Position numbers and translations under genes: made by a program
From: Burkholderiaceae bacterium
GTDB lineage: Bacteria > Pseudomonadota > Gammaproteobacteria > Burkholderiales > Burkholderiaceae_C
Reading direction: 5' to 3'
DNA: 64,000 bases
Assembly: GCA_032122355.1 (NCBI GenBank)
Contig: JAUMCS010000060.1
Coordinates: 9,312 to 73,311, forward strand
Notes under the pieces: model-generated
Databases searched by the model: none
What the model saw: the letters and a program-made list of their open reading frames with translations, nothing else
What the model was told of the DNA's origin: nothing
Part shown: positions 30,540 through 46,195 of the stretch, piece by piece
How the letters are laid out: every line of letters starts with the position of its first letter
How positions within the stretch are numbered: position 1 is the first letter of the stretch

Positions 30540-31562
30540 ATGATGCCTAATACTCACCCCACTGAGCCCAGCGCCCCCGAGCCGGATGGGCATTCAGCGC
30601 TTTATTGGGCACGCCAAACGCTCACGATTGAGGCACAAGCTTTATTGGCGGCACGTGATGCCATGGATGAATCATTCACTCAAGCGGTTGATCTACTGCG
30701 GGCTGTGAAAGGCCATGTAGTGGTCACGGGCATGGGCAAAAGCGGTCATGTGGGCCGCAAAATGGCAGCCACTCTGGCTTCGACCGGTACGCCTGCGATG
30801 TTTGTCCACCCCGCTGAGGCCAGTCATGGAGATTTGGGGATGATCACATCGGATGATGCTGTCATAGCCCTAAGCCAATCCGGTCAGAGCGAAGAAATCC
30901 ATGTGATTTTACCTACCCTTAAACGCCTGAATATCCCACTGATAGCCATTACTGGCAATGCCGACTCCCACTTGGCGCGGTATGCCGATGTCACTTTGAG
31001 TAGCGCAGTCGCACAGGAAGCCTGCCCCCTGAATTTGGCACCGACCGCCAGTACCACGGTTCAAATCGCCTTAGGCGATGCCTTGGCTGTGGCGCTATTG
31101 GATGCTCGGGGCTTTCAAGCTGAAGATTTTGCCCGCTCGCACCCCGGGGGGTCACTAGGGCGTAAGCTTTTACTGCGCGTTGGGGATTTAATGCGCAAAG
31201 GTGATGAACTGCCCATAGTGTCGCCCGATGCCGCACTCTCGCATATTCTGAGCGTCATGTCGGCCAAAGGAATGGGTTTTGCGGTGGTAGTTACTGACGA
31301 GCAACAAATGGCGGGCATTTTTACTGACGGCGATTTGCGACGTTTAATTGAACAGGCACAAAATGTGGATGCGCTACGCCAATACTGCGCCCGCGACATC
31401 ATGCACACCACACCCAAAACGATCCGCGAGAATGCCTTGGCTGCTCAGGCTGCTCAACTCATGGAGCAACATCGAGTGACTTCAATTCTCGTACTCAATG
31501 ATGCCGATCAATTGATTGGCGCCATTAACAGCAATGATCTCATGCGTGCAAAGGTGATTTAA
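30540..31562 (+). CDS. kdsD: arabinose-5-phosphate isomerase (SIS + CBS domains)
   Basis: 340 aa. SIS motif VVVTGMGKSGHVGRKMAATLASTGTPA, tandem C-terminal CBS domains, upstream of kdsC-lptCAB. Confidence 0.9.
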   Translation: MMPNTHPTEPSAPEPDGHSALYWARQTLTIEAQALLAARDAMDESFTQAVDLLRAVKGHVVVTGMGKSGHVGRKMAATLASTGTPAMFVHPAEASHGDLGMITSDDAVIALSQSGQSEEIHVILPTLKRLNIPLIAITGNADSHLARYADVTLSSAVAQEACPLNLAPTASTTVQIALGDALAVALLDARGFQAEDFARSHPGGSLGRKLLLRVGDLMRKGDELPIVSPDAALSHILSVMSAKGMGFAVVVTDEQQMAGIFTDGDLRRLIEQAQNVDALRQYCARDIMHTTPKTIRENALAAQAAQLMEQHRVTSILVLNDADQLIGAINSNDLMRAKVI

Positions 31563-37116: not shown

Positions 37117-37371
37117 ATGACTATTACCACCATATCAAGCCGCGAGTTCAATCAAGGGGCGAGCGAGGCCAAACGCGCCACCACCAACGGGCCCGTGTTC
37201 ATCACCGATCGAGGCAAACCGGCGCATGTGCTGATGAGCTTTGCCGACTATCAGCGGTTGACAAAGCAGCGGCGCAACATTGCCGATGCGCTGGCTATGC
37301 CGGGTGTTGCCGACATTGAATTTGAGCCGCCACGTGTGAATATGGAAGTTCAACGGGCTGATTTCTCATGA
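37117..37371 (+). CDS. type II antitoxin, Phd/YefM family
   Basis: 84 aa. The N-terminus (ISSREFNQGASEAKRATTNGPVFITDRGKPAHVLMSFADYQRL) is typical of Phd/YefM. There is a 4-nt overlap with the downstream PIN toxin gene. Confidence 0.8.
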   Translation: MTITTISSREFNQGASEAKRATTNGPVFITDRGKPAHVLMSFADYQRLTKQRRNIADALAMPGVADIEFEPPRVNMEVQRADFS

Positions 37372-37808
37372 TGTTTGTTCTTGATACCAACGTGGTTTCT
37401 GAATTGCGGAAGGTACGACTTGGCAAGGCCGATTCGAATGTGACGGCATGGGCACAAAGTGTTGATGCGGCTGACCTATTTGTGTCGGTCATCACCATCA
37501 TGGAACTGGAGCTTGGCGTTGTCTCGATGGAGCGAAAAGACCCCATCCAAGGCGCCATATTGCGCTCGTGGCTTGAGCAGCAAGTATGGCCTGAGTTCTC
37601 TGGGCGCACGCTGCCCATAGATACCCCAGTGGCACAACGCTGTGCTCGGCTGCATATACCCGACAAGCGCAGCGAGCGCGATGCGCTGATTGCGGCCACC
37701 GCTCTTGTGCACGGCATGACGGTGGTCACCCGCAACGTCGCTGATTTTGAGCCCACGGGAGTGCCACTCATCAATCCGTGGGAAGTATTGCCGAACCCAT
37801 TCTTTTAG
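37368..37808 (+). CDS. vapC: type II toxin, PIN-domain VapC/FitB family
   Basis: 146 aa with N-terminal MFVLDTNVVSELRK and conserved acidic residues of PIN domains. Confidence 0.8.
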   Translation: MMFVLDTNVVSELRKVRLGKADSNVTAWAQSVDAADLFVSVITIMELELGVVSMERKDPIQGAILRSWLEQQVWPEFSGRTLPIDTPVAQRCARLHIPDKRSERDALIAATALVHGMTVVTRNVADFEPTGVPLINPWEVLPNPFF

Positions 37809-38212
37809 CCAATAATCCAATTTTCTAATTCAAGCGCTGGCACTCGCTCAAATTCTGCAACATTATTGGTGACCAATATCAGTCCTTCGCTCCTGGCGTG
37901 ACCTGCAATATGTAGGTCATTCACCCCAATGGGTTGACCCATCTTTTCAAGTGTGGCGCGGATGGCGCCGTAGTGCTGGGCGGCCTTTGCACCATAGGGC
38001 AGCACCTCAAGCCGGCTACAAAAGTCCTCGATGGCAGCCAAATTCTCATTCATGCGTTGACTTTTCTCGGCGCCATGCATCAGTTCAGCAAGGGTGATTG
38101 ACGAGATGGCCATGCGCGTGGCGTTGGCGTTGAACCGATCAAGTACCTCGCGTGGGCGCCGCTTGAGCACGTAAATGACGATATTGGTATCGAGTAAGTA
38201 GCGCAACATCAA
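37805..38212 (-). CDS. vapC: type II toxin, PIN-domain VapC
   Basis: 135 aa. N-terminal MLRYLLDTNIVIYVLK, C-terminal LVTNNVAEFERV. Confidence 0.85.
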   Translation of the reverse strand: MMLRYLLDTNIVIYVLKRRPREVLDRFNANATRMAISSITLAELMHGAEKSQRMNENLAAIEDFCSRLEVLPYGAKAAQHYGAIRATLEKMGQPIGVNDLHIAGHARSEGLILVTNNVAEFERVPALELENWIIG

Positions 38213-38442
38213 AAGGCTTCCCGCTCGGACTGCTGCTGCGAGGCACGTTCAGGCAAAAAGTCATCGCTCACCAGCGGCCCGTCCAAAAAGAAGCTGTCCC
38301 AAGTTTGGCCGATGGGAGCGATGATGCGCTCTTGACCTTTGACGCGTATATCCACCTTGCGCACACCCTCGGGGAATCGAACGTCCACTGGCAGCCGAAC
38401 AGCTTGAGTACGGTTGTTAACAAATACGGTGCTAATCGACAT
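38209..38442 (-). CDS. vapB: type II antitoxin VapB (AbrB/SpoVT-like)
   Basis: 77 aa. MSISTVFVNNRTQAVRLPVDVRF is typical of VapB. There is a 4-nt overlap with vapC. Confidence 0.8.
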   Translation of the reverse strand: MSISTVFVNNRTQAVRLPVDVRFPEGVRKVDIRVKGQERIIAPIGQTWDSFFLDGPLVSDDFLPERASQQQSEREAF

Positions 38443-38507
38443 ATTGGTCCCCTACGCTTATTTACACATATGGCAATTGTATATAGCAGCTCACAAGCAG
38501 TCAAGTC

Positions 38508-38543
38508 AATGTAGCCCCCGCTCTCACCCCGGATTGTTACTAT
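38508..38543 (+). repeat. orphan degenerate CRISPR repeat, about 1.67 kb from the array
   Basis: aatGTAGCCCCCgCTCTCACCCCGGATTGtTACtAT compared with the array consensus GTTGTAGCCCCCTCTCTCACCCCGGATTGCTACAAT. It has the same orientation, three internal mismatches and a divergent 5' trinucleotide. Confidence 0.85.
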
Positions 38544-38566
38544 GGCGTTAAACCAAAGCATGCAGG

Positions 38567-39217
38567 GTGTTTTGCTTAACAGCGCACTTTTCCGATTTGG
38601 GGTTACGCATCATCTTGACAGAACTCACCGGAAGGTTACAATTAGTGCAACTTTCCGATGAGCATTTTATGCAACCTAGCCGGCAACTCTTAGACACCAT
38701 CAGCCAGTTGGCCACCCCGCAGGCTTGCCTGTTCACGCCTTCCGATTTGCGTTCGATTCTTCCAGGGCTCTCGGACATAGCATTCAAAACTCTGATGAGT
38801 CGGGTAGCATGCGAAGGATACCTGAGCAGGCTATGTCGTGGCTTGTATTTGTTCGAAAAAGCCAATCCCGATCGTGGTTTAGTCCTGCCCCATGCCGTAT
38901 CCAAGCTGCGTCCGCTAGGCTTCAATTACTTGAGTCTTGAAACGGTTTTAAGTGATGCGGGCGTCATTTCCCAAATTCCCATCAATCGCATCATGGTCAT
39001 GTCTTCAGGAAGATCTGGCGTCATCGATTGCGGCCGATGGGGAAGCATCGAATTTGTCAAAACTCGACAAAGACCTGAGGAACTCACACGAAATATGGAG
39101 TATGACCCCATCATGCGACTTTGGCGAGCGAACGTTGCACAAGCTCTCAGAGATATGAGAACAACTCACCGAAATTTAGACCTCATTGATTGGAAGGTGC
39201 CCCATGAGTTTGTTTGA
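38567..39217 (+). CDS. abiEi: AbiEi-type antitoxin/transcriptional regulator (type IV TA)
   Basis: The wHTH-like segment LFTPSDLRSILPGLSDIAFKTLMSRVACEGYLSRLCRGLYLF resembles the AbiEi N-domain, and the gene is paired with an AbiEii gene. The start is uncertain: GTG at 38567 or ATG at 38669. Confidence 0.65.
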   Translation: MFCLTAHFSDLGLRIILTELTGRLQLVQLSDEHFMQPSRQLLDTISQLATPQACLFTPSDLRSILPGLSDIAFKTLMSRVACEGYLSRLCRGLYLFEKANPDRGLVLPHAVSKLRPLGFNYLSLETVLSDAGVISQIPINRIMVMSSGRSGVIDCGRWGSIEFVKTRQRPEELTRNMEYDPIMRLWRANVAQALRDMRTTHRNLDLIDWKVPHEFV

Positions 39218-40100
39218 TAAGCTGGTCGATGAAGCACTCAGAAACCAGCAAGCGTTGGCTCCTTTGCGGGTCGTTGTGGAAAAAGAGCTTCTGCACCATG
39301 ACATTTTGCGCGTACTCAGCAGCGCAGGTCTTCTTACCCAACTCACGTTTATCGGGGGAACTTGTCTGCGAACATGCTACGGATCAAGCCGATTAAGTGA
39401 AGATTTGGATTTTACCGGCGGATCCGACTTCACCCGCGATCAACTTGCGGTCATGAGCAACATCCTTATTGATGGACTCAAAGCCAAGTATGGACTGGAG
39501 ATCACCGTGACCGAACCCGTGCGTGAAGAAGGCAATGTCGATACTTGGAAGCTCAAAGTTCAGACCAGACCTGGGCGCAAAGAACTTCCTGCTCAACGCA
39601 TCCATATCGATGTATGCGCCATTCCCAGCTATCAACCACGCCCTATGGCGCTACTCAACCCATACGGTGTTGAAATGGGCACCAGCGGTTTGATACTTCA
39701 AGCGCAATCGAGGGAAGAAATTTTTGCCGACAAATTAATAGCCTTTGCACTCCGCCCAAACCGAATTAAAAATCGTGATCTGTGGGATATCGCCTGGCTA
39801 CACCAGCAACAAGTCAAACCAGCTATTGATCTTATCCAGAAAAAATTGAATAATCATCATGCGCAAACGGATGCATACTTGAACGCTACCGCTGCGCGTG
39901 CTGCATCCTTAACCAAGAACCCTGAAATCGCAAAGGAGTTTCGTCACGAGATGGAACGCTTTCTTCCCAACGAGACGGTGAAGGCCACCGTGCATTCAGA
40001 GCAGTTCTGGCAGTACTTGAGCAACTTGATAGAGGGTTATCATCAACAACTGATTCTGATACTTGAGGGCCGTGAGATGTCGCCAAAATTCAAGATGTAA
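39204..40100 (+). CDS. abiEii: AbiEii/AbiGii-family nucleotidyltransferase toxin (DUF1814)
   Basis: The motif LTFIGGTCLRTCYGSSRLSEDLDFTGG is typical of the family. The ATG at 39204 is preceded by GGAAGG and overlaps the abiEi end by 14 nt. Confidence 0.8.
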   Translation: MSLFDKLVDEALRNQQALAPLRVVVEKELLHHDILRVLSSAGLLTQLTFIGGTCLRTCYGSSRLSEDLDFTGGSDFTRDQLAVMSNILIDGLKAKYGLEITVTEPVREEGNVDTWKLKVQTRPGRKELPAQRIHIDVCAIPSYQPRPMALLNPYGVEMGTSGLILQAQSREEIFADKLIAFALRPNRIKNRDLWDIAWLHQQQVKPAIDLIQKKLNNHHAQTDAYLNATAARAASLTKNPEIAKEFRHEMERFLPNETVKATVHSEQFWQYLSNLIEGYHQQLILILEGREMSPKFKM

Positions 40101-40209
40101 TCCATACTTTTTAGGCAAGCCCTGCAGCGCATCAGCTATGCAGGCTCGCTTAACACCACCAGACAAACAATTAAATTCACTACAAATTCGGCATTTCTAA
40201 ATTGCGGCT

Positions 40210-41169
40210 ACACTCGCCCCCTCTCTCACCCCGGATTGCTACAATAGATGGTTTGTACTACGGCAACAGCAATTCGTTGTAGCCCCCTCTCTCACCCCGG
40301 ATTGCTACAATTTTAAAAATAACCTTGTGGGTTGTTTCTTCGTTGTAGCCCCCTCTCTCACCCCGGATTGCTACAATCTCGGGGAGCTGCGTGAGGTGCA
40401 GGCATTTGTTGTAGCCCCCTCTCTCACCCCGGATTGCTACAATGAGAAGAAAACGAAGAAGAAGAGAGAGAAGGTTGTAGCCCCCTCTCTCACCCCGGAT
40501 TGCTACAATTCAAATTTCCGTTTGACCACTCGCGGCAACGTTGTAGCCCCCTCTCTCACCCCGGATTGCTACAATAAAGAAGAGAAAGGCAAGGAAGGAA
40601 AGAAAGTTGTAGCCCCCTCTCTCACCCCGGATTGCTACAATGCTGCATCAGGCATCAAATGCTCTACCTCTGTTGTAGCCCCCTCTCTCACCCCGGATTG
40701 CTACAATGTAGGGTTGTGTTATTACTGGTGACGTACAGTTGTAGCCCCCTCTCTCACCCCGGATTGCTACAATGCTTAAAGCCGGTTAAAAAAACCAAGC
40801 AGGGTTGTAGCCCCCTCTCTCACCCCGGATTGCTACAATTAGCTTCATTGTTAAGGCGCACTGTAACCCGTTGTAGCCCCCTCTCTCACCCCGGATTGCT
40901 ACAATATACTCATGAAGCGGTTTTGCCTTATTGACGTTGTAGCCCCCTCTCTCACCCCGGATTGCTACAATAAAATGGCGCCGGATGTCTTCCGGCCACG
41001 CGTTGTAGCCCCCTCTCTCACCCCGGATTGCTACAATCATGAAGCGGTTTTGCCTTATTGATTAATCGTTGTAGCCCCCTCTCTCACCCCGGATTGCTAC
41101 AATACCTTATCTAAACTATCTTCTTCTATAACCGTTGTAGCCCCCTCTCTCACCCCGGATTGCTACAAT
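40210..41169 (+). CRISPR. CRISPR array, type II-C: 15 repeats of 36 nt (first one degenerate at its 5' end) and 14 spacers of exactly 30 nt
   Basis: Repeats were located by hand at 40210, 40276, 40342, 40408, 40474, 40540, 40606, 40672, 40738, 40804, 40870, 40936, 41002, 41068 and 41134, a 66-nt period. Consensus GTTGTAGCCCCCTCTCTCACCCCGGATTGCTACAAT. Orientation was set by similarity to the Neisseria meningitidis II-C repeat and by the tracrRNA anti-repeat. Confidence 0.97.
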
Positions 41170-41178
41170 AGACCCCTT

Positions 41179-41221
41179 GTAAACCCGCTACAGGCCTAGC
41201 TTTTAGCGGGTTTACATTTTT
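41179..41221 (+). terminator. rho-independent terminator at the cas2-proximal end of the array
   Basis: Perfect 12-bp stem GTAAACCCGCTA / TAGCGGGTTTAC with a 13-nt loop, followed by ATTTTT. Confidence 0.7.
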
Positions 41222-41231
41222 AAAAACCGCC

Positions 41232-41564
41232 TTAAAAAAGGCACATTTGATTGGAATTTATCTTTTTTTCCTGAAAACCAACTTCGCCCACCAGCAGTAA
41301 CATACCGGCAAATTGCTTTTCAGTCACGGTCAGCACGCGCACTGACCCCTTAACGGGCAGATGAGCCATTAGCCTTTTTAAATGTTTTTCTTCGGCATCC
41401 CTGCCATTCAATATTCGACCATAAACAGAAAATTGAATCATGTGGTAGCCATCATTCAGCAAGAACCTCCGAAACTCCACATACGCACGCTTATCAGCTT
41501 TGCTTACTGTAGGCAAATCAAAGAACACCATTATTCGCATGAATCGCCTCGTGGTCTGACTCAT
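41232..41564 (-). CDS. cas2: CRISPR-associated endoribonuclease Cas2
   Basis: 110 aa. RIMVFFDLPTVSKADKRAYVEFRRFLLNDGYHMIQFSVYGR is typical of type II Cas2. Confidence 0.9.
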   Translation of the reverse strand: MSQTTRRFMRIMVFFDLPTVSKADKRAYVEFRRFLLNDGYHMIQFSVYGRILNGRDAEEKHLKRLMAHLPVKGSVRVLTVTEKQFAGMLLLVGEVGFQEKKINSNQMCLF

Positions 41565-41579
41565 GCTGGTTGAGTACGC

Positions 41580-42488
41580 CTACATCTCGTACTTATGCTG
41601 ATTTAAACCTATCAGCCTCGGTAACTCTAAAACCAACTCACTGCCACCATCATACAAGCGCGCCAATGATTCAGCCGCCTGCTCTACTGCAGCCAATACA
41701 CTCATCACCCCCCGCGGCATTGCCACATCCACATTCAGCAAACCCACCAAAGCCACTTTATCACTTGGGCTTAAATCGGCCGAGCCATCCGGCTTGCGGT
41801 TCATGGCCACATACAAATCCACCAACGGGCGAAATGGTTCAATCAAATCATCCGCCAAATTAAATGCATTTTGCTCACTGCTGTGGAATATACCCAGCGA
41901 CGGCAACATACCGTGAGCCACCACAGCCCTTGCACATGCGCCGCGCATCACAGCATAACCATAATCTAAGGCAGCATTTAACCAACCTATTTGGCTTCGA
42001 TTGAAATTGTGCCCCATGATTTTCAGGAAGTAATATGCCGCAGCCTGCGCCTCTAAATTACCCTGATCACCCGAGCGCACCCTACGCGCCATGGCTTCAA
42101 GCCGATCTGGATCGCCAAGGCTTAGTAACTGCATACACTTGGCCTGATTGCGAATTTTGGCCTGCACCATACTGGCCCAAGCACGCTTAGCCGATGGTTT
42201 ATCTAAATCCAACTGCAAACGCAACATCCGTGTAGCACGGCTATGGGCTTGAAATGGCAGTAAAACTCCATTAGGCTGATGATTATCACCCGTTGAAAAA
42301 AGGCCAATTCCGTATTCAGCACAGGCTGAAAGCACAGGGTGCGTCAGGGTAATTTCTCGGTTGTTCAACACAATCACTGCAATATCTTCAAAAGGGATAC
42401 GCGCCACCTGGGCTTGTTCAACCAACAATGAGAAATGCTCACGCCTAAGCCTAGCAGGCTGGTTCACCATCACGCTTCGCCACACCAT
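41580..42488 (-). CDS. cas1: CRISPR-associated endonuclease Cas1 (type II)
   Basis: 302 aa with conserved Cas1 segments (LNAALDYGYAVMRGACARAVVAHGMLPSLGIFH...NAFNLADDLIEPFRPLVD). It overlaps the cas9 3' end; an internal Met at 42470 is an alternative start. Confidence 0.92.
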   Translation of the reverse strand: MVWRSVMVNQPARLRREHFSLLVEQAQVARIPFEDIAVIVLNNREITLTHPVLSACAEYGIGLFSTGDNHQPNGVLLPFQAHSRATRMLRLQLDLDKPSAKRAWASMVQAKIRNQAKCMQLLSLGDPDRLEAMARRVRSGDQGNLEAQAAAYYFLKIMGHNFNRSQIGWLNAALDYGYAVMRGACARAVVAHGMLPSLGIFHSSEQNAFNLADDLIEPFRPLVDLYVAMNRKPDGSADLSPSDKVALVGLLNVDVAMPRGVMSVLAAVEQAAESLARLYDGGSELVLELPRLIGLNQHKYEM

Positions 42489-45400
42489 TGCGCACCTCCT
42501 GTTTAGCTGCGTAAATACGGCCTAACACATCCACGTGAAATTTTTCAATTGACAGAGCAGTCTTCACGCCAATGCCTCTGATCAAGCCATCTTTGCCTAC
42601 CGTGCTATTACGATCGTGGGCCCATAAGGTTAAACTGGCCGATGCCCGATCAAAGCCTGCATAATAGCCCTTGATCAGGGGCTTGCCCTTTTGCTGAATG
42701 TGCACATAATCATTGCGCTGCAATTGAAAGCCAAAAGTAAACGTTTCATCCACAACCGTCCATTCGGACTCTGGTTTTGCCGCTGTAGCGGCACGGTTGG
42801 GCAAACCGGTTACTCGATGATGTAAATATACGGGAACCAAATAAAATTTACCAGCCTTTGAAAATACATCTACCCGCAACATGGTTTCGTTCATCGCCAA
42901 ACCACCCCGAACGGGTATGCCAGTCATTTTTTCTTTTTCCAGCTTGACAGATCGTACCAGCGCCCCAGGCGCACCATCATTTCGGGGTTTGCGCGGTAAC
43001 TCACGCAACAACGCTATTTCTGCTTTCTCTGCTGCAGTCAATTCACGGCGGTCTTTACCTTTACCCGCACTGGCCTCAATCGCTTTGGCTTGTTTTTCAT
43101 TGGCTTCACGGGCTTCTAACCACTGGCGTATCGCGGCATACAGTTTTTCATTACGGTGGGGCTCCACCAATTTGTCCATATCCTTGAGCGTCAAGTCACG
43201 CACGTGCACCTTTTCTGTGATGCCATTTGCCGTTTTGCCATACACGGTCGCTTTATGAACTGCACCCCCATTTCTACGCTGCGGTGCCCGCGAAACAAAT
43301 AATGGCTTCACTGCACTTAGCACAGGTTCAGGGTAGGTGCCCAACATACTTAATCGGTTGCGTAGTGCCTCCACATTATCTTCTTTCAGTCTGCACTCTA
43401 GTTCATCCCTAAAATTCAACCATGGCGTTGGAAAGTGAGCTTCTAATTGCGCAAACGTTGCGGGGTTTAATATCTCACCTGTTTCAATATCTACAAAACC
43501 TTCTCGCATTTGTTTGAGTTCTTTTCTGCGTGAATAGTCAGCTAGCCTTTTCACCATACTGTGGCTGCATGCTGCAATGACAACCGCATCCAAGGCATGA
43601 TGCCGATCGCTTTCATCACGCACCTTGACCAAACCCCACCGCGCACGCAAAAAAGCCGTTAATTGCCCATTCAGAACCACGCAACGGCCCTGACCACTTC
43701 CCTGCGCCAATTGCAAATGCTCTTCAACGTAGTTTTTAAAAAACCGTGCAATATAGCGCGTGTCATTTAAGTTGCGCTCACGAAAACTGGACGCCTCTTC
43801 TTTGCCAAAATCTTTGCGTAACAAGCGGCTGCGTTTGGCTTGGCGATACGCCTTGTTAGACTCCACAAATGCGACAAACCTAAGCCAACGTTCGCTGTGG
43901 TTAGCACCATCCAAATACTCGTAAGGCGTACGGTTACCCTTATTGCGGTTTTCATGGGTAAATACCAATACCTTATTGTTTTTGCCATCATCAAAACTGC
44001 GCGAATAAGGCAGCGCATGATCCACTTCAACATAGCCCACTTCCAATAATCGGTGGCGCTCGATCACACCTAATGAATAGGCGCACTTACCCCCTTGCTC
44101 ATCATACAAACGGTATTTCTCAAAATCTTTGCCCCTAGGTTTGCCCTCCAACCCCAAGTCACACGCAATCTCATCAAACTCAGCTCGCACCTGTAAATTC
44201 TTTTCTTTATAGCTTTCCTGCTCTTTTCTAATGGCTTCACGCTCCTCTAATGGGCGCGCCAAGTCGCGTGCCAATTCAATATGCACCTTTGCCGGCGATC
44301 CATACGTTTTTACCAGGGCATTCAAAACCTTACGCGCCTGATTAACAGCTCGAATCACCACCGGGTTACGCGGTACATTCAAATCTGAGTTGAACTGCAT
44401 ACTGCCACGTGAATCACGGCCCATATACAAGGGCGGTAAGGTGCGGTGTGTACCATGGCCGACCTTTTTAACCTGACTGTGATGGTACGATGCCGCTGCA
44501 CAGGCCTCGTCATAGCGCATACCTTGCATCATGTGCGGCACAATGTTCCGAAGTGCTTTGAGAGAAAGCGCATGAAACTTATCAAAACGCACCTTCAGTA
44601 AGGCATTAATAGTGGCATCGCCACCCGGCAAGCCCAGCTTTTGCAACTCGGCATTCACTTCAAAGTCTTCCTTATAAACACTCAATACCCATGCAATGTC
44701 ATCCAGCAAATGGGGGTTACCATCTAAGGCCTGTTGTGCCATAGCTTGCCAAATATCTTCTAAGCCTTCTTTTTTAAATACAGTTTTTAGCTCGTGCCAT
44801 GCACTCAGCTTAATCATCACTTCATCTTCGGGGCTTTTGGCTTGGCCTGCGGCTAATTGCGCAGCACTGGGGTAAGCCAAGCCCGTGAATTTAAATGACT
44901 CACTCACACCCACAGCCACTAAGGCTTTGCGCAAGTTTTTGTAAGTAAATTTTTCTTTGCTTTGATAAGGGAGATTCACGCAAATTCGGTGCTCTTCTTC
45001 AGTAAGCCCCCTACTCATTCCATCTACCGTAATACGTGTATTGTTTAAACGTGTAAGCCACACATGGCGTTCAGCCGTAAAGCTGGCTTTAGGCGCGCGA
45101 AATTCAGATGGCTCAAACGTACATTTTCCCAGCATCTTTAATAGACCATCCCCCATCAAAGGGGGCTTTTGCAACCAAAATAGGCCACTCTTTTTATCGC
45201 CGTTACCTAAAATCTGCAACGCTAAATCTTCGCCGGCGTGCGCATGCCCAAAGCCCCTTTGGGCAATAAACAATTGATGCAGCTCATCAGCTAATAAAAC
45301 GCGCGACAGGGATTTTGTATAATCATCTTTTTTATTACGCTGCGCTATGGGAAATTCGGCCAGTACCATTTCAGCGGCAGTACGGTAATTTTTTTCTTTC

Positions 45401-45921
45401 ATGAGCGCCCTAGTGCTTTGCAGTGCTTGCTTAACCCTTCCTGTTTCACTGGCAGCATCTTCCTCAGCAGCCTTTTCTTCTGCACTGCTCGTCCAATGAA
45501 AGCCGCGCCGTTTACAAATGTGGTAGATGACACGCGCCCATTCTTCATGGCTCAATAAACGATCTAGCCCTTCTTTACGCAATTGCCAAACCGAATCAGC
45601 ATGACTGGGCTGCTTTTTGAAATAATGCGCATCCGTAATCATTCCTTGTCGCCGCATCAAACGAGCAAGCCGTGTTAACCGCCACGCCCTTCTGCGCAAC
45701 CGCCTGCGAGCAAGGCGGGCCGTTCTTCTTTCAAAATTCAGCGACTTTCCCTTACCTTTATCGTTGATTTCAGCCATATTGAAAGCCCTAACACCCAGGT
45801 CGACAATACGCTCTTCACTCAATACAGCCCAACCCACAGAGGCAATACCAATATCAAAACCAAATGTTAAGGGCCCCAAGTTTGTGGTGTGTAAATTTTT
45901 TTCTGGTATGTGATTTTCCAT
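42451..45921 (-). CDS. cas9: CRISPR-associated endonuclease Cas9, type II-C
   Basis: 1156 aa. RuvC-I FDIGIASVGWAVL, Arg-rich bridge helix RRTARLARRRLRRRAWRL, HNH VDHALPYSRSFDDGKNNKVLVFTHENRNKGNRTPYEY, RuvC-III HHALDAVVIAACS. There is no csn2 or cas4. Confidence 0.97.
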   Translation of the reverse strand: MENHIPEKNLHTTNLGPLTFGFDIGIASVGWAVLSEERIVDLGVRAFNMAEINDKGKGKSLNFERRTARLARRRLRRRAWRLTRLARLMRRQGMITDAHYFKKQPSHADSVWQLRKEGLDRLLSHEEWARVIYHICKRRGFHWTSSAEEKAAEEDAASETGRVKQALQSTRALMKEKNYRTAAEMVLAEFPIAQRNKKDDYTKSLSRVLLADELHQLFIAQRGFGHAHAGEDLALQILGNGDKKSGLFWLQKPPLMGDGLLKMLGKCTFEPSEFRAPKASFTAERHVWLTRLNNTRITVDGMSRGLTEEEHRICVNLPYQSKEKFTYKNLRKALVAVGVSESFKFTGLAYPSAAQLAAGQAKSPEDEVMIKLSAWHELKTVFKKEGLEDIWQAMAQQALDGNPHLLDDIAWVLSVYKEDFEVNAELQKLGLPGGDATINALLKVRFDKFHALSLKALRNIVPHMMQGMRYDEACAAASYHHSQVKKVGHGTHRTLPPLYMGRDSRGSMQFNSDLNVPRNPVVIRAVNQARKVLNALVKTYGSPAKVHIELARDLARPLEEREAIRKEQESYKEKNLQVRAEFDEIACDLGLEGKPRGKDFEKYRLYDEQGGKCAYSLGVIERHRLLEVGYVEVDHALPYSRSFDDGKNNKVLVFTHENRNKGNRTPYEYLDGANHSERWLRFVAFVESNKAYRQAKRSRLLRKDFGKEEASSFRERNLNDTRYIARFFKNYVEEHLQLAQGSGQGRCVVLNGQLTAFLRARWGLVKVRDESDRHHALDAVVIAACSHSMVKRLADYSRRKELKQMREGFVDIETGEILNPATFAQLEAHFPTPWLNFRDELECRLKEDNVEALRNRLSMLGTYPEPVLSAVKPLFVSRAPQRRNGGAVHKATVYGKTANGITEKVHVRDLTLKDMDKLVEPHRNEKLYAAIRQWLEAREANEKQAKAIEASAGKGKDRRELTAAEKAEIALLRELPRKPRNDGAPGALVRSVKLEKEKMTGIPVRGGLAMNETMLRVDVFSKAGKFYLVPVYLHHRVTGLPNRAATAAKPESEWTVVDETFTFGFQLQRNDYVHIQQKGKPLIKGYYAGFDRASASLTLWAHDRNSTVGKDGLIRGIGVKTALSIEKFHVDVLGRIYAAKQEVRNGVAKRDGEPAC

Positions 45922-45946: not shown

Positions 45947-46046
45947 ATTGTAACAATCCGGGGTGAGAGCCGTTGCTGCAATAAGAACTGGCTTTTATGC
46001 CTGTTCGTCCCCAAAACCCGCTACTGGCAACTTTAGCGGGTTTTTT
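45947..46046 (+). ncRNA. tracrRNA: predicted tracrRNA (divergent from cas9)
   Basis: The 36-nt anti-repeat ATTGTAACAATCCGGGGTGAGAGCCGTTGCTGCAAT (45947-45982) is complementary to the repeat at both ends with a central bulge. A nexus-like AAGAACTGGC follows, then a terminator (11-bp stem AAAACCCGCTA/TAGCGGGTTTT plus T6) ending at 46046. A candidate -10 TAGAAT lies at 45935-45940. The layout mirrors the N. meningitidis tracrRNA (..GAGAACCGUUGCUACAAUAAGG..) as I recall it. The exact 5' end is uncertain. Confidence 0.8.
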
Positions 46047-46107: not shown

Positions 46108-46195
46108 GGAAGCGTGGCAGAGTGGTCGATTGCACCGGTCTTGAAAACCGGCAACGGGCAACCGTTCGTGAGTTCGAATCTCACCGCTTCCGCCA
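46108..46195 (+). tRNA. tRNA-Ser (anticodon TGA)
   Basis: Hand-folded. Acceptor GGAAGCG/CGCTTCC, anticodon stem CCGGT/ACCGG with loop CTTGAAA, long variable arm, T-arm GTGAG-TTCGAAT-CTCAC, encoded CCA. Confidence 0.88.

Follow-up and report, generated by a model that had tools for sequence, protein, structure and literature searches.

The locus described here raises the question of why a degenerate CRISPR repeat stands immediately upstream of an abortive-infection operon, and whether that repeat serves the operon as a promoter. Zhang et al. (2013) reportedly described repeat-embedded crRNA promoters in II-C CRISPR-Cas9 of the N. meningitidis type. The first-pass annotation of the window, which is the whole 64-kb stretch of DNA analysed, had proposed that a repeat-borne promoter could have been co-opted to drive abiE. 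The reading judged probable here is a different one, in which abiE is an autonomous cassette that carries its own promoter and sits at the array's old end, and the orphan repeat is an unneeded, decaying relic.

The window, whose sequence is also found in assembly GCA_032111225.1, features a type II-C CRISPR array (40210-41169, crRNA sense strand +) with 15 repeats (36 nt each), 14 spacers (30 nt each) and a 66-nt period. The consensus repeat is GTTGTAGCCCCCTCTCTCACCCCGGATTGCTACAAT, and 14 of the 15 repeats are perfect. The terminal, cas-distal repeat (40210-40245, +) begins with ACACTCG and has mismatches only at positions 1-4 and 6. Terminal repeats of relatives are degenerate solely at positions 1-6, and degeneracy at the 5' end of the terminal repeat is usual for this repeat family. 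The cas genes are located on the minus strand and consist of cas2 (41232-41564), cas1 (41580-42488) and cas9 (42451-45921; TIGR01865, 723 bits). The set of cas9, cas1 and cas2 only, followed by the array, with csn2 and cas4 absent, fits type II-C. A candidate tracrRNA (45947-46046, +) features an anti-repeat at 45947-45982, which has the same position in relatives, followed by an intrinsic terminator. The locus resembles that of N. meningitidis (PMC12477760) in its cas9-cas1-cas2 order followed by an oppositely read array, in its 30-nt spacers, in its cas-distal old end and in a 36-nt repeat of the form GTTGTAGC...TGCTACAAT with an identical extended -10 box. It differs in having a divergent tracrRNA, located upstream of cas9, and an old array end that is interrupted by a toxin-antitoxin (TA) cassette. 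Every one of the 15 array repeats features the box TGCTACAAT, and its identity to the N. meningitidis box suggests that these repeats may be active promoters (PMC12477760). In N. meningitidis the leader, or acquisition, end is downstream in the crRNA orientation, and by analogy the cas-distal end would be the old end of the array (PMC12477760).

The orphan repeat (38508-38543, +) has the sequence AATGTAGCCCCCGCTCTCACCCCGGATTGTTACTAT and matches the array consensus at 31 of 36 positions, with mismatches at positions 1, 2, 13, 30 and 34. Its resemblance to the array repeat is due to descent and not to chance: its local alignment score is 56, compared with 28 for the best other same-strand score in the 64 kb outside the array, and the 99.9th percentile is 24. 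The 5' end, AATGTAG, has the form expected of a terminal repeat and is identical to the 5' end of the terminal repeat in a related locus (L017). The distance from the end of the orphan at 38543 to the terminal repeat of the array at 40210 is 1,666 nt, and abiEi and abiEii, both with profile matches, are the sole genes in this interval. The first-pass annotation was right about the same-strand copy, its spacing from the degenerate terminal repeat and the content of the interval. No more decayed repeats scored above background within 38544-40209, and an Rfam search of the interval gave no family match. The 70 nt between the orphan and the abiE cassette (38544-38613) feature no homologue, no significant repeat remnant and no terminator.

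The first gene, abiEi (38669-39217, +), encodes a putative antitoxin and repressor of 182 aa, and abiEii (39204-40100, +), which overlaps abiEi by 14 nt, encodes a DUF1814 nucleotidyltransferase of 298 aa, the putative toxin. AbiEi matches the equivalog profile NCBIfam NF047376 with 170.9 bits against a cut-off of 150 and the PADLOC AbiEi profile with 8.7e-57; the match to Pfam AbiEi_4 is weak. AbiEii matches Pfam PF08843 with 8e-32 over profile positions 2-235 of 238 and PADLOC AbiEii with 1.7e-106. AbiEii has 5,389 homologues at E<=1e-30, and the length is 298 aa in all 120 matches listed. The gene content is that of an AbiE type IV TA system, with a DUF1814 AbiEii and a COG5340-type AbiEi with an N-terminal wHTH encoded directly upstream in one operon. 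The start of abiEi is ATG 38669, 125 nt 3' of the orphan, because position 3 of the NCBIfam AbiEi profile aligns with residue 4 of the protein that starts there and because homologous AbiEi genes are annotated as 182 aa with the equivalent ATG as the start. The first-pass annotation had given this start, at about 125 bp, as one of two options; the other, a GTG about 25 bp from the orphan (38567), is not supported. A search of plasmids with the whole interval gave just three weak 150-nt abiEii matches, from Enterobacter plasmids. A stable hairpin without a U-tract directly follows abiEii (40111-40153, +); it does not resemble a canonical terminator, and abiE read-through into the array is possible.

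A sigma-70 promoter-like site, P_abiE, is located between the orphan and abiEi (38615-38642, +). It has the form TTGACA-16 nt-TACAAT, which is an 11/12 match, and across all homologues the -35 hexamer never varies and the -10 reads either TACAAT or TACACT. The -10 is spanned by a 14-nt inverted repeat, CTCACCGGAAGGTT / AACTTTCCGATGAG (38624-38662), that is kept in homologues, and in one of these (L100) a compensatory change preserves the symmetry. AbiEi proteins are known to repress their own promoters by binding to inverted repeats there, and the inverted repeat of the window is by analogy a probable AbiEi operator (PMC7319586, PMC3985639).

The abiE cassette (38614-40117, +) is homologous to abiE modules from three unrelated CRISPR-free contexts, with DNA identities of 79-82%. 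The contexts are a D5-primase mobile element (L084, L088-L090), a Fic/recombinase island (L100, L101) and a MarR/ParE chromosomal site (L102, L103), and no CRISPR repeat was found upstream of the homologous cassette in any of the three. The left edge of the homology is always at window position 38614, at the -35 hexamer, and the right edge is at 40100-40117; the best-conserved portion across homologues is the promoter together with the 5'UTR. Since the homology in CRISPR-free contexts begins at the -35 hexamer, the cassette carries its own putative promoter. The abiE module is a discrete, horizontally moving unit. Direct repeats or a target-site duplication around the cassette (ATGCAGG...GCTTAACA on both sides) were considered and rejected: the alignment is at chance level (p about 0.1-0.16), and the right-hand ATGCAGG...GCTTAACA copy is simply one arm of a hairpin.

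The preferred reading is that an autonomous type IV TA or abortive-infection cassette, consisting of P_abiE with its palindromic operator, abiEi and abiEii (38614-40117), is located at the cas-distal end of the II-C array, where it separates the rest of the array from a single repeat of terminal type (38508-38543) that was already degenerate. Transcription of abiE would start from its own sigma-70 promoter at 38615-38642, and AbiEi would probably repress this promoter by binding to the inverted repeat that spans the -10. The orphan box may still give some read-through into abiE, but abiE expression would neither need the box nor maintain it.

The extended -10-like box of the orphan is TGTTACTAT (38535-38543, +), and any promoter activity would be by analogy with the repeat-embedded promoters of N. 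meningitidis (PMC12477760). The first-pass annotation had noted that the orphan keeps this 3' end. The box is there; its presence alone is uninformative, because TGnTAnnAT occurs 33 times in the window and 31.5 occurrences are expected. Five same-locus haplotypes were compared, from strains that are 1-2% divergent, and all keep the gene order mazE-orphan-abiEi. In these haplotypes, which come from a few short metagenomic contigs, 4 of the 36 nt of the orphan vary, and 3 of these sites are inside the 9-nt box. Among close strains, no other stretch of the locus is as polymorphic as the box. The 92 nt between the cassette and the array (40118-40209) are also highly polymorphic. The box has the ancestral state TGCTACAAT in two haplotypes (L097, L099), the state TGTTACTAT in the window and the state TGCTGCAAT in a further haplotype (L098), in which the A at -11 is lost. 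Both window-specific changes are derived, and one of them shifts the hexamer off consensus (TACAAT -> TACTAT). The P_abiE hexamers show no variation across the same haplotypes. The concentration of three of the four variable sites inside the box, set against invariant P_abiE hexamers, suggests that the orphan box is under no constraint. The orphan looks like a decaying relic, a fossil rather than a recruited promoter.

Insertion or recombination of abiE at the old, cas-distal array end is the simplest history and a plausible one, as had been proposed in the first-pass annotation, because neither abiE nor an orphan repeat outside the array is found in any of 80 related II-C loci (from a genome scan, with Cas1 identities of at most 80% and no flank synteny) and because both flanking repeats are terminal-like; the cassette boundaries are consistent with it. 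The proposed comparison with related arrays that run through this position without abiE yielded no such array. The genome scan gave no relative whose array runs on without interruption at this chromosomal site, two metagenome scans were uninformative, the exact-protein look-up with Cas2 gave no match, and every match of the look-up with MazE was either a strain arranged like the window or a contig that stops short of the region. A rather unlikely alternative is that the orphan is all that is left of an array that was older or has been replaced, or of inter-repeat recombination, and that abiE was never inserted into an array. Insertion within a spacer should leave the penultimate repeat intact, and here both the orphan (AATGTAG...) and the first repeat (ACACTCG...) show the outer-end degeneracy of true terminal repeats. 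In addition, G13 of the orphan is the consensus base in some other lineages (L026, L048, L068), and related arrays have a conserved trailer element of two hairpins that is absent here on both sides, with no nhmmer match near the locus. Against a separate older array, the ancestral orphan differs from the current consensus at only one internal position (position 13) and includes the lineage-specific C9, which indicates that the orphan comes from the same repeat lineage as the array. The present data fit this history and a simple insertion alike.

Co-option of the repeat promoter is improbable. The orphan extended -10 would then be a functional second abiE promoter that is free of AbiEi control and that couples Abi to a crRNA-type promoter. 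The window haplotype of the box, TGTTACTAT, does retain TG, T-12, A-11 and T-7 and is oriented as abiE. The N. meningitidis II-C repeat-embedded promoters are active, and transcription from them starts at spacer nucleotide 6 (PMC12477760). No terminator-like site is present between the orphan and abiEi (38544-38668), and a transcript from ~38549 would enter abiE, which is a point against the preferred reading. However, abiE has its own stronger, conserved promoter, its ATG is 125 nt away from the orphan, and the box is the part of the locus that varies most, with the loss of A-11 in one haplotype and a derived change away from consensus in the window. A read-through RNA would also include both arms of the 38624-38662 palindrome, which are predicted to fold just 5' of the ATG, and operator-bound AbiEi would lie in the path of the polymerase. 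The claim of co-option is thus not supported. A two-way transcriptional link, in which the orphan supplies a low, AbiEi-independent abiE transcript and abiE reads into the array to connect Abi with crRNA, is slightly less credible still; if true, a protein-coding defence gene would have recruited a promoter that derives from a CRISPR repeat.

It is very improbable that the orphan and an adjacent pseudo-spacer pair with the tracrRNA and guide Cas9 to repress the abiE, vapBC or cas9 promoter, as a Cas9 addiction analogous to CreA, scaRNA or tracr-L: the orphan can still pair with the tracrRNA anti-repeat along most of its length, and toxin- or TA-regulating ectopic repeats have been described for type I loci and scaRNAs for type II loci (PMC10120712, PMC9458426, PMC13431127), but the 30 nt upstream of the orphan have no match of at least 10 nt elsewhere in the window, the matches of the terminal-repeat pseudo-spacer are at chance level (~2.6 expected) with none near the abiE, vapBC or cas9 promoter, no convincing plus-strand promoter is found 5' of the pseudo-spacer (a 9/12 match only) and no terminator after the repeat, and the element is missing from the 80 related loci and not conserved in sequence among strains. 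The CreA-like reading was rejected on spacer complementarity, conservation and a promoter and terminator of its own. The orphan shares with CreTA toxins and their ectopic repeats (PMC10120712, PMC9458426, PMC8501985) and with scaRNA (PMC13431127, PMC5449619) a degenerate extra-array repeat beside TA cargo. It differs from them in having no promoter-complementary pseudo-spacer, no expression signals of its own and no conservation in related loci, and the toxin of the window belongs to a protein TA with its own repressor.

The coupling of CRISPR repeats with Abi had been presented as undescribed. CRISPR loci with TA cargo are known, as are ectopic repeats by toxins such as CreTA and cr-like mini-arrays (PMC10120712, PMC9458426), and the claim is overstated; the literature consulted did not include a case in which a repeat donates its promoter to a protein TA. 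If the stranded repeat were an active, selected abiE promoter, it would represent a new route of CRISPR repeat exaptation. The module itself resembles known AbiE type IV TA systems (Dy et al. 2014, PMC3985639; Beck et al. 2020, PMC7319586), which are bicistronic with overlapping genes, feature a COG5340-type AbiEi, a DUF1814 AbiEii and an inverted repeat in their own promoter, and are located on mobile elements and in defence islands. There is no essential difference within the module, and the one unusual aspect is its location, with a stranded repeat on one side and a II-C array on the other. The locus is a case of defence-island accretion combined with array decay and offers little that is new; it leaves the current understanding of CRISPR or Abi systems unchanged. 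Read in this way, it illustrates the growth of a defence island by a mobile TA/Abi cassette that brought a probably regulated promoter, lodged at a decaying array end and left one repeat stranded, and it cautions that a repeat-like sequence 5' of a gene need not be the promoter of that gene. Degenerate old-end repeats and TA modules by the array are also features of trailer-end array decay and of TA accretion in defence islands; the window differs in that a complete two-gene cassette is located between the last two repeat copies and not beyond the last. Three TA modules (phd/PIN, mazE/PIN and abiE) are stacked beside the array, and the promoter-like site of the neighbouring mazE-like/PIN operon (37805-38504, -), TTGACT-17-TACAAT (38504-38476), adjoins the orphan repeat.

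The CRISPR array (40210-41169, + strand) features 15 repeats of 36 nt with a 66-nt period, followed by cas2, cas1, and cas9 (41232-45921, - strand). The locus is N. meningitidis-like type II-C with an ordinary array, and crRNA transcription would run along the + strand toward cas2. Fourteen of the 15 repeats are identical to GTTGTAGCCCCCTCTCTCACCCCGGATTGCTACAAT, and the first repeat (40210-40245) deviates from it solely at positions 1-4 and 6. A degenerate copy on the same strand, the orphan repeat (AATGTAGCCCCCGCTCTCACCCCGGATTGTTACTAT), is located to the left of the array at 38508-38543; it is 31/36 identical to the array repeat with an alignment score of 56, and the best other same-strand score in the window is 28. 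The sole other strong match in the window is the tracrRNA anti-repeat (about 45947-45982), which lies on the strand opposite to the array repeats. Family and profile matches confirm that the 1,666-nt interval between orphan repeat and array contains abiEi and abiEii exclusively, so that the anatomy described in the first-pass annotation (orphan repeat, abiE-only interval, array order) is borne out. AbiEii (39204-40100, + strand, 298 aa) matches Pfam PF08843 (8e-32) and a PADLOC profile (1.7e-106), AbiEi matches NCBIfam NF047376 above the cut-off, and together they form an ordinary AbiE module. Two abiEi starts had been offered, GTG 38567 and ATG 38669, 25 and 125 nt from the orphan repeat. Position 3 of the NF047376 profile aligns with residue 4 of the ATG protein, the 34 additional codons of the GTG ORF have no match, and the same stretch is a conserved promoter in abiE homologues; abiEi therefore starts at the ATG, 125 nt past the orphan repeat.

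The comparison set comprised 80 related II-C loci (Cas1 64-80% identical), mostly from Burkholderiales and Nitrosomonadales MAGs. None of the 80 encodes AbiEi or AbiEii, has a repeat-like sequence outside its array other than the anti-repeat, or shares flanking-gene synteny with the window. In the related loci that include the cas-distal end of their array, the last repeat is perfect or is degenerate at positions 1-6 alone, with 5' ends such as TCCGTAG, GTCATAG, AATGTAG, TCCATAG, TCGTTTG, and CCCGTCG. The repeat at 40210 (ACACTCG) matches this terminal pattern, as does the orphan repeat, whose AATGTAG is also the 5' end of the terminal repeat in one relative (L017). The proposal that the cas-distal end would be the old end of the array agrees with the degenerate repeats found there and with the leader position in N. 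meningitidis, where acquisition occurs downstream in crRNA orientation (PMC12477760). The simplest account is insertion at this end: the abiE cassette, together with flanking DNA of 70 and 92 nt, would have inserted into the array's last unit. The anatomy favors the insertion or recombination proposed earlier, and an uninterrupted, abiE-free haplotype of the locus was looked for by metagenome scans and an exact-protein look-up of Cas2 and was not found. Because no such haplotype was found and both repeats flanking the cassette look terminal, some weight is left for the unlikely alternative that the orphan repeat survives from an older array or arose by recombination.

The abiE cassette (38614-40117, + strand) carries its own predicted promoter, P_abiE (38615-38642, TTGACA-16-TACAAT, 11/12). 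AbiEii homologues at 83-87% identity are numerous, and three independent genomic contexts were examined: a mobile element with a D5-type primase (L084, L088-L090), a Fic/HTH/recombinase island (L100, L101), and a MarR/ParE-Phd chromosomal site (L102, L103). No CRISPR repeat was found in any of the three. DNA homology of all three to the window (79-82%) starts a single base ahead of the -35 hexamer, at 38614, and extends to 40100-40117; its best-conserved part is the promoter and 5'UTR (CTTGACA..CCGGAAGGTTACAnTTAGTGCAACTTTCCGATGAG). A 14-nt inverted repeat (arms 38624-38637 and 38649-38662) straddles the -10 of P_abiE, and L100 carries matched changes in its two arms. Known AbiEi proteins bind inverted repeats within the promoter of their operon and thereby repress their own expression (PMC7319586, PMC3985639); by analogy, the palindrome is a probable AbiEi operator.

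The first-pass annotation had suggested that a repeat-borne promoter was co-opted to drive abiE, the candidate being the extended -10-like box TGnTAnnAT at the 3' end of the orphan repeat (38535-38543). Contigs from several samples were recovered by an exact-protein look-up of the neighboring MazE antitoxin; they have the gene order of the window and 98-100% identity. Four of the 36 nt of the orphan repeat vary among these strains (38524, 38537, 38539, and 38541), and three of the four lie within the 9-nt box. The box is TGCTACAAT in L097 and L099, matching the array repeats and hence ancestral; it is TGTTACTAT in the window haplotype (common to L081-L083 and L095) and TGCTGCAAT in L098, which lacks the -11 A. 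In sigma-70 promoters the -11 A is among the two most critical bases of the -10 element. Variable-site density is 0.11/nt in the orphan repeat, 0.09/nt in the adjoining 65 nt on its left, 0.04/nt in 38544-38668, and about 0.016/nt over the initial 255 nt of abiEi, and the P_abiE hexamers are invariant. The motif occurs in the window at chance frequency (33 found, 31.5 expected). The polymorphic box, the invariant hexamers, and the chance-level motif together point to a relic rather than a recruited promoter, and co-option is not supported. The box of the window retains TG, T-12, A-11, and T-7, and no terminator was found between the orphan repeat and abiEi. Transcription from N. meningitidis repeat promoters starts at the sixth spacer nucleotide (PMC12477760), which would place a start at about 38549; functional read-through into abiE is nonetheless very improbable. 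A regulatory RNA like CreA, scaRNA, or tracr-L, for which a guide-like sequence beside the repeat should match a promoter, was rejected: the 30-nt stretch preceding the orphan repeat matches no other part of the window over 10 nt or more, the 30-nt stretch preceding the terminal repeat has only chance-level matches in the window and none near the abiE, vapBC, or cas9 promoters, the orphan repeat lacks both a convincing promoter and a convincing terminator, and this repeat is not conserved, being absent beyond the arrays of the 80 related loci and variable among strains.

The novelty claimed earlier is narrowed, since TA cargo within CRISPR loci has been described before, as have ectopic repeats (PMC10120712, PMC9458426); the sole particular feature is the geometry, in that an entire TA cassette separates the final two repeat copies. 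The array trailer is a small accretion site for TA modules. Directly left of the abiE region are a phd/PIN module (37117-37808, + strand) and a mazE/PIN module (37805-38442, - strand), which with abiEi/abiEii (+ strand) are stacked over 37117-40100 from an rlmL-like methyltransferase gene to the array. In another genome (L096), a 90% identical mazE/PIN pair adjoins a TacA/acetyltransferase TA. G+C is about 0.46-0.50 within the tracrRNA-cas9-cas1-cas2-array-TA block versus about 0.54-0.55 just outside. A tRNA gene (46108-46192) lies about 60 nt past the tracrRNA terminator, and the whole block may therefore be a tRNA-adjacent island. The MAG contig GCA_032111225.1 (L081) is otherwise identical to the window and shows an indel-type break spanning a few tens of bases (window 30885-30922, L081 1708-1719), left of which the segment is merely 98.6% identical.

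A conserved element abuts the terminal repeat, occupying the roughly 75 nt immediately beyond the cas-distal repeat, in 27/40 related II-C arrays (L006, L010, L012, L013, L015, L019, L021, L022, L032, L036, L046, L049-L051, L053, L055, L056, L058, L060, L062, L063, L067, L069, L072, L073, L075, L079). It consists of a T-rich stretch, a TTGCTAAAC-like sequence, a short (N)CGCG-AAG-CGC(N') hairpin with a covarying outer pair, and a long hairpin that always pairs, though its sequence differs completely among lineages. An nhmmer search found no such element in 38400-40210 of the window. In N. meningitidis the sRNA NMnc0040/scaRNA adjoins the array (PMC5449619).

The complement of the tracrRNA anti-repeat features the same extended -10-like box as the repeats (TGTTACAAT, 45947-45955, - strand), directed into cas9 and ending 25 nt upstream of its ATG. 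In most related loci the hexamer ends in a base other than T, so this box probably just follows from repeat complementarity and does not represent a conserved cas9 promoter. A hairpin-terminator between the array and cas2 (41181-41221, AAACCCGCTACAGGCCTAGCTTTTAGCGGGTTT, then ACATTTTT) closely resembles that of the tracrRNA (46014-46046, AAACCCGCTACTGGCAACTTTAGCGGGTTTTTT), and related structures appear to end both tracrRNA and crRNA-strand transcripts. Spacers 40444-40473 and 40576-40605 are low-complexity and nearly all purine (GAGAAGAAAACGAAGAAGAAGAGAGAGAAG and AAAGAAGAGAAAGGCAAGGAAGGAAAGAAA). Spacers 40906-40935 and 41038-41067 have 24 nt in common (CATGAAGCGGTTTTGCCTTATTGA) with a 5-nt offset and diverge right past the common part; they derive from overlapping protospacers of one invader or two closely related invaders.
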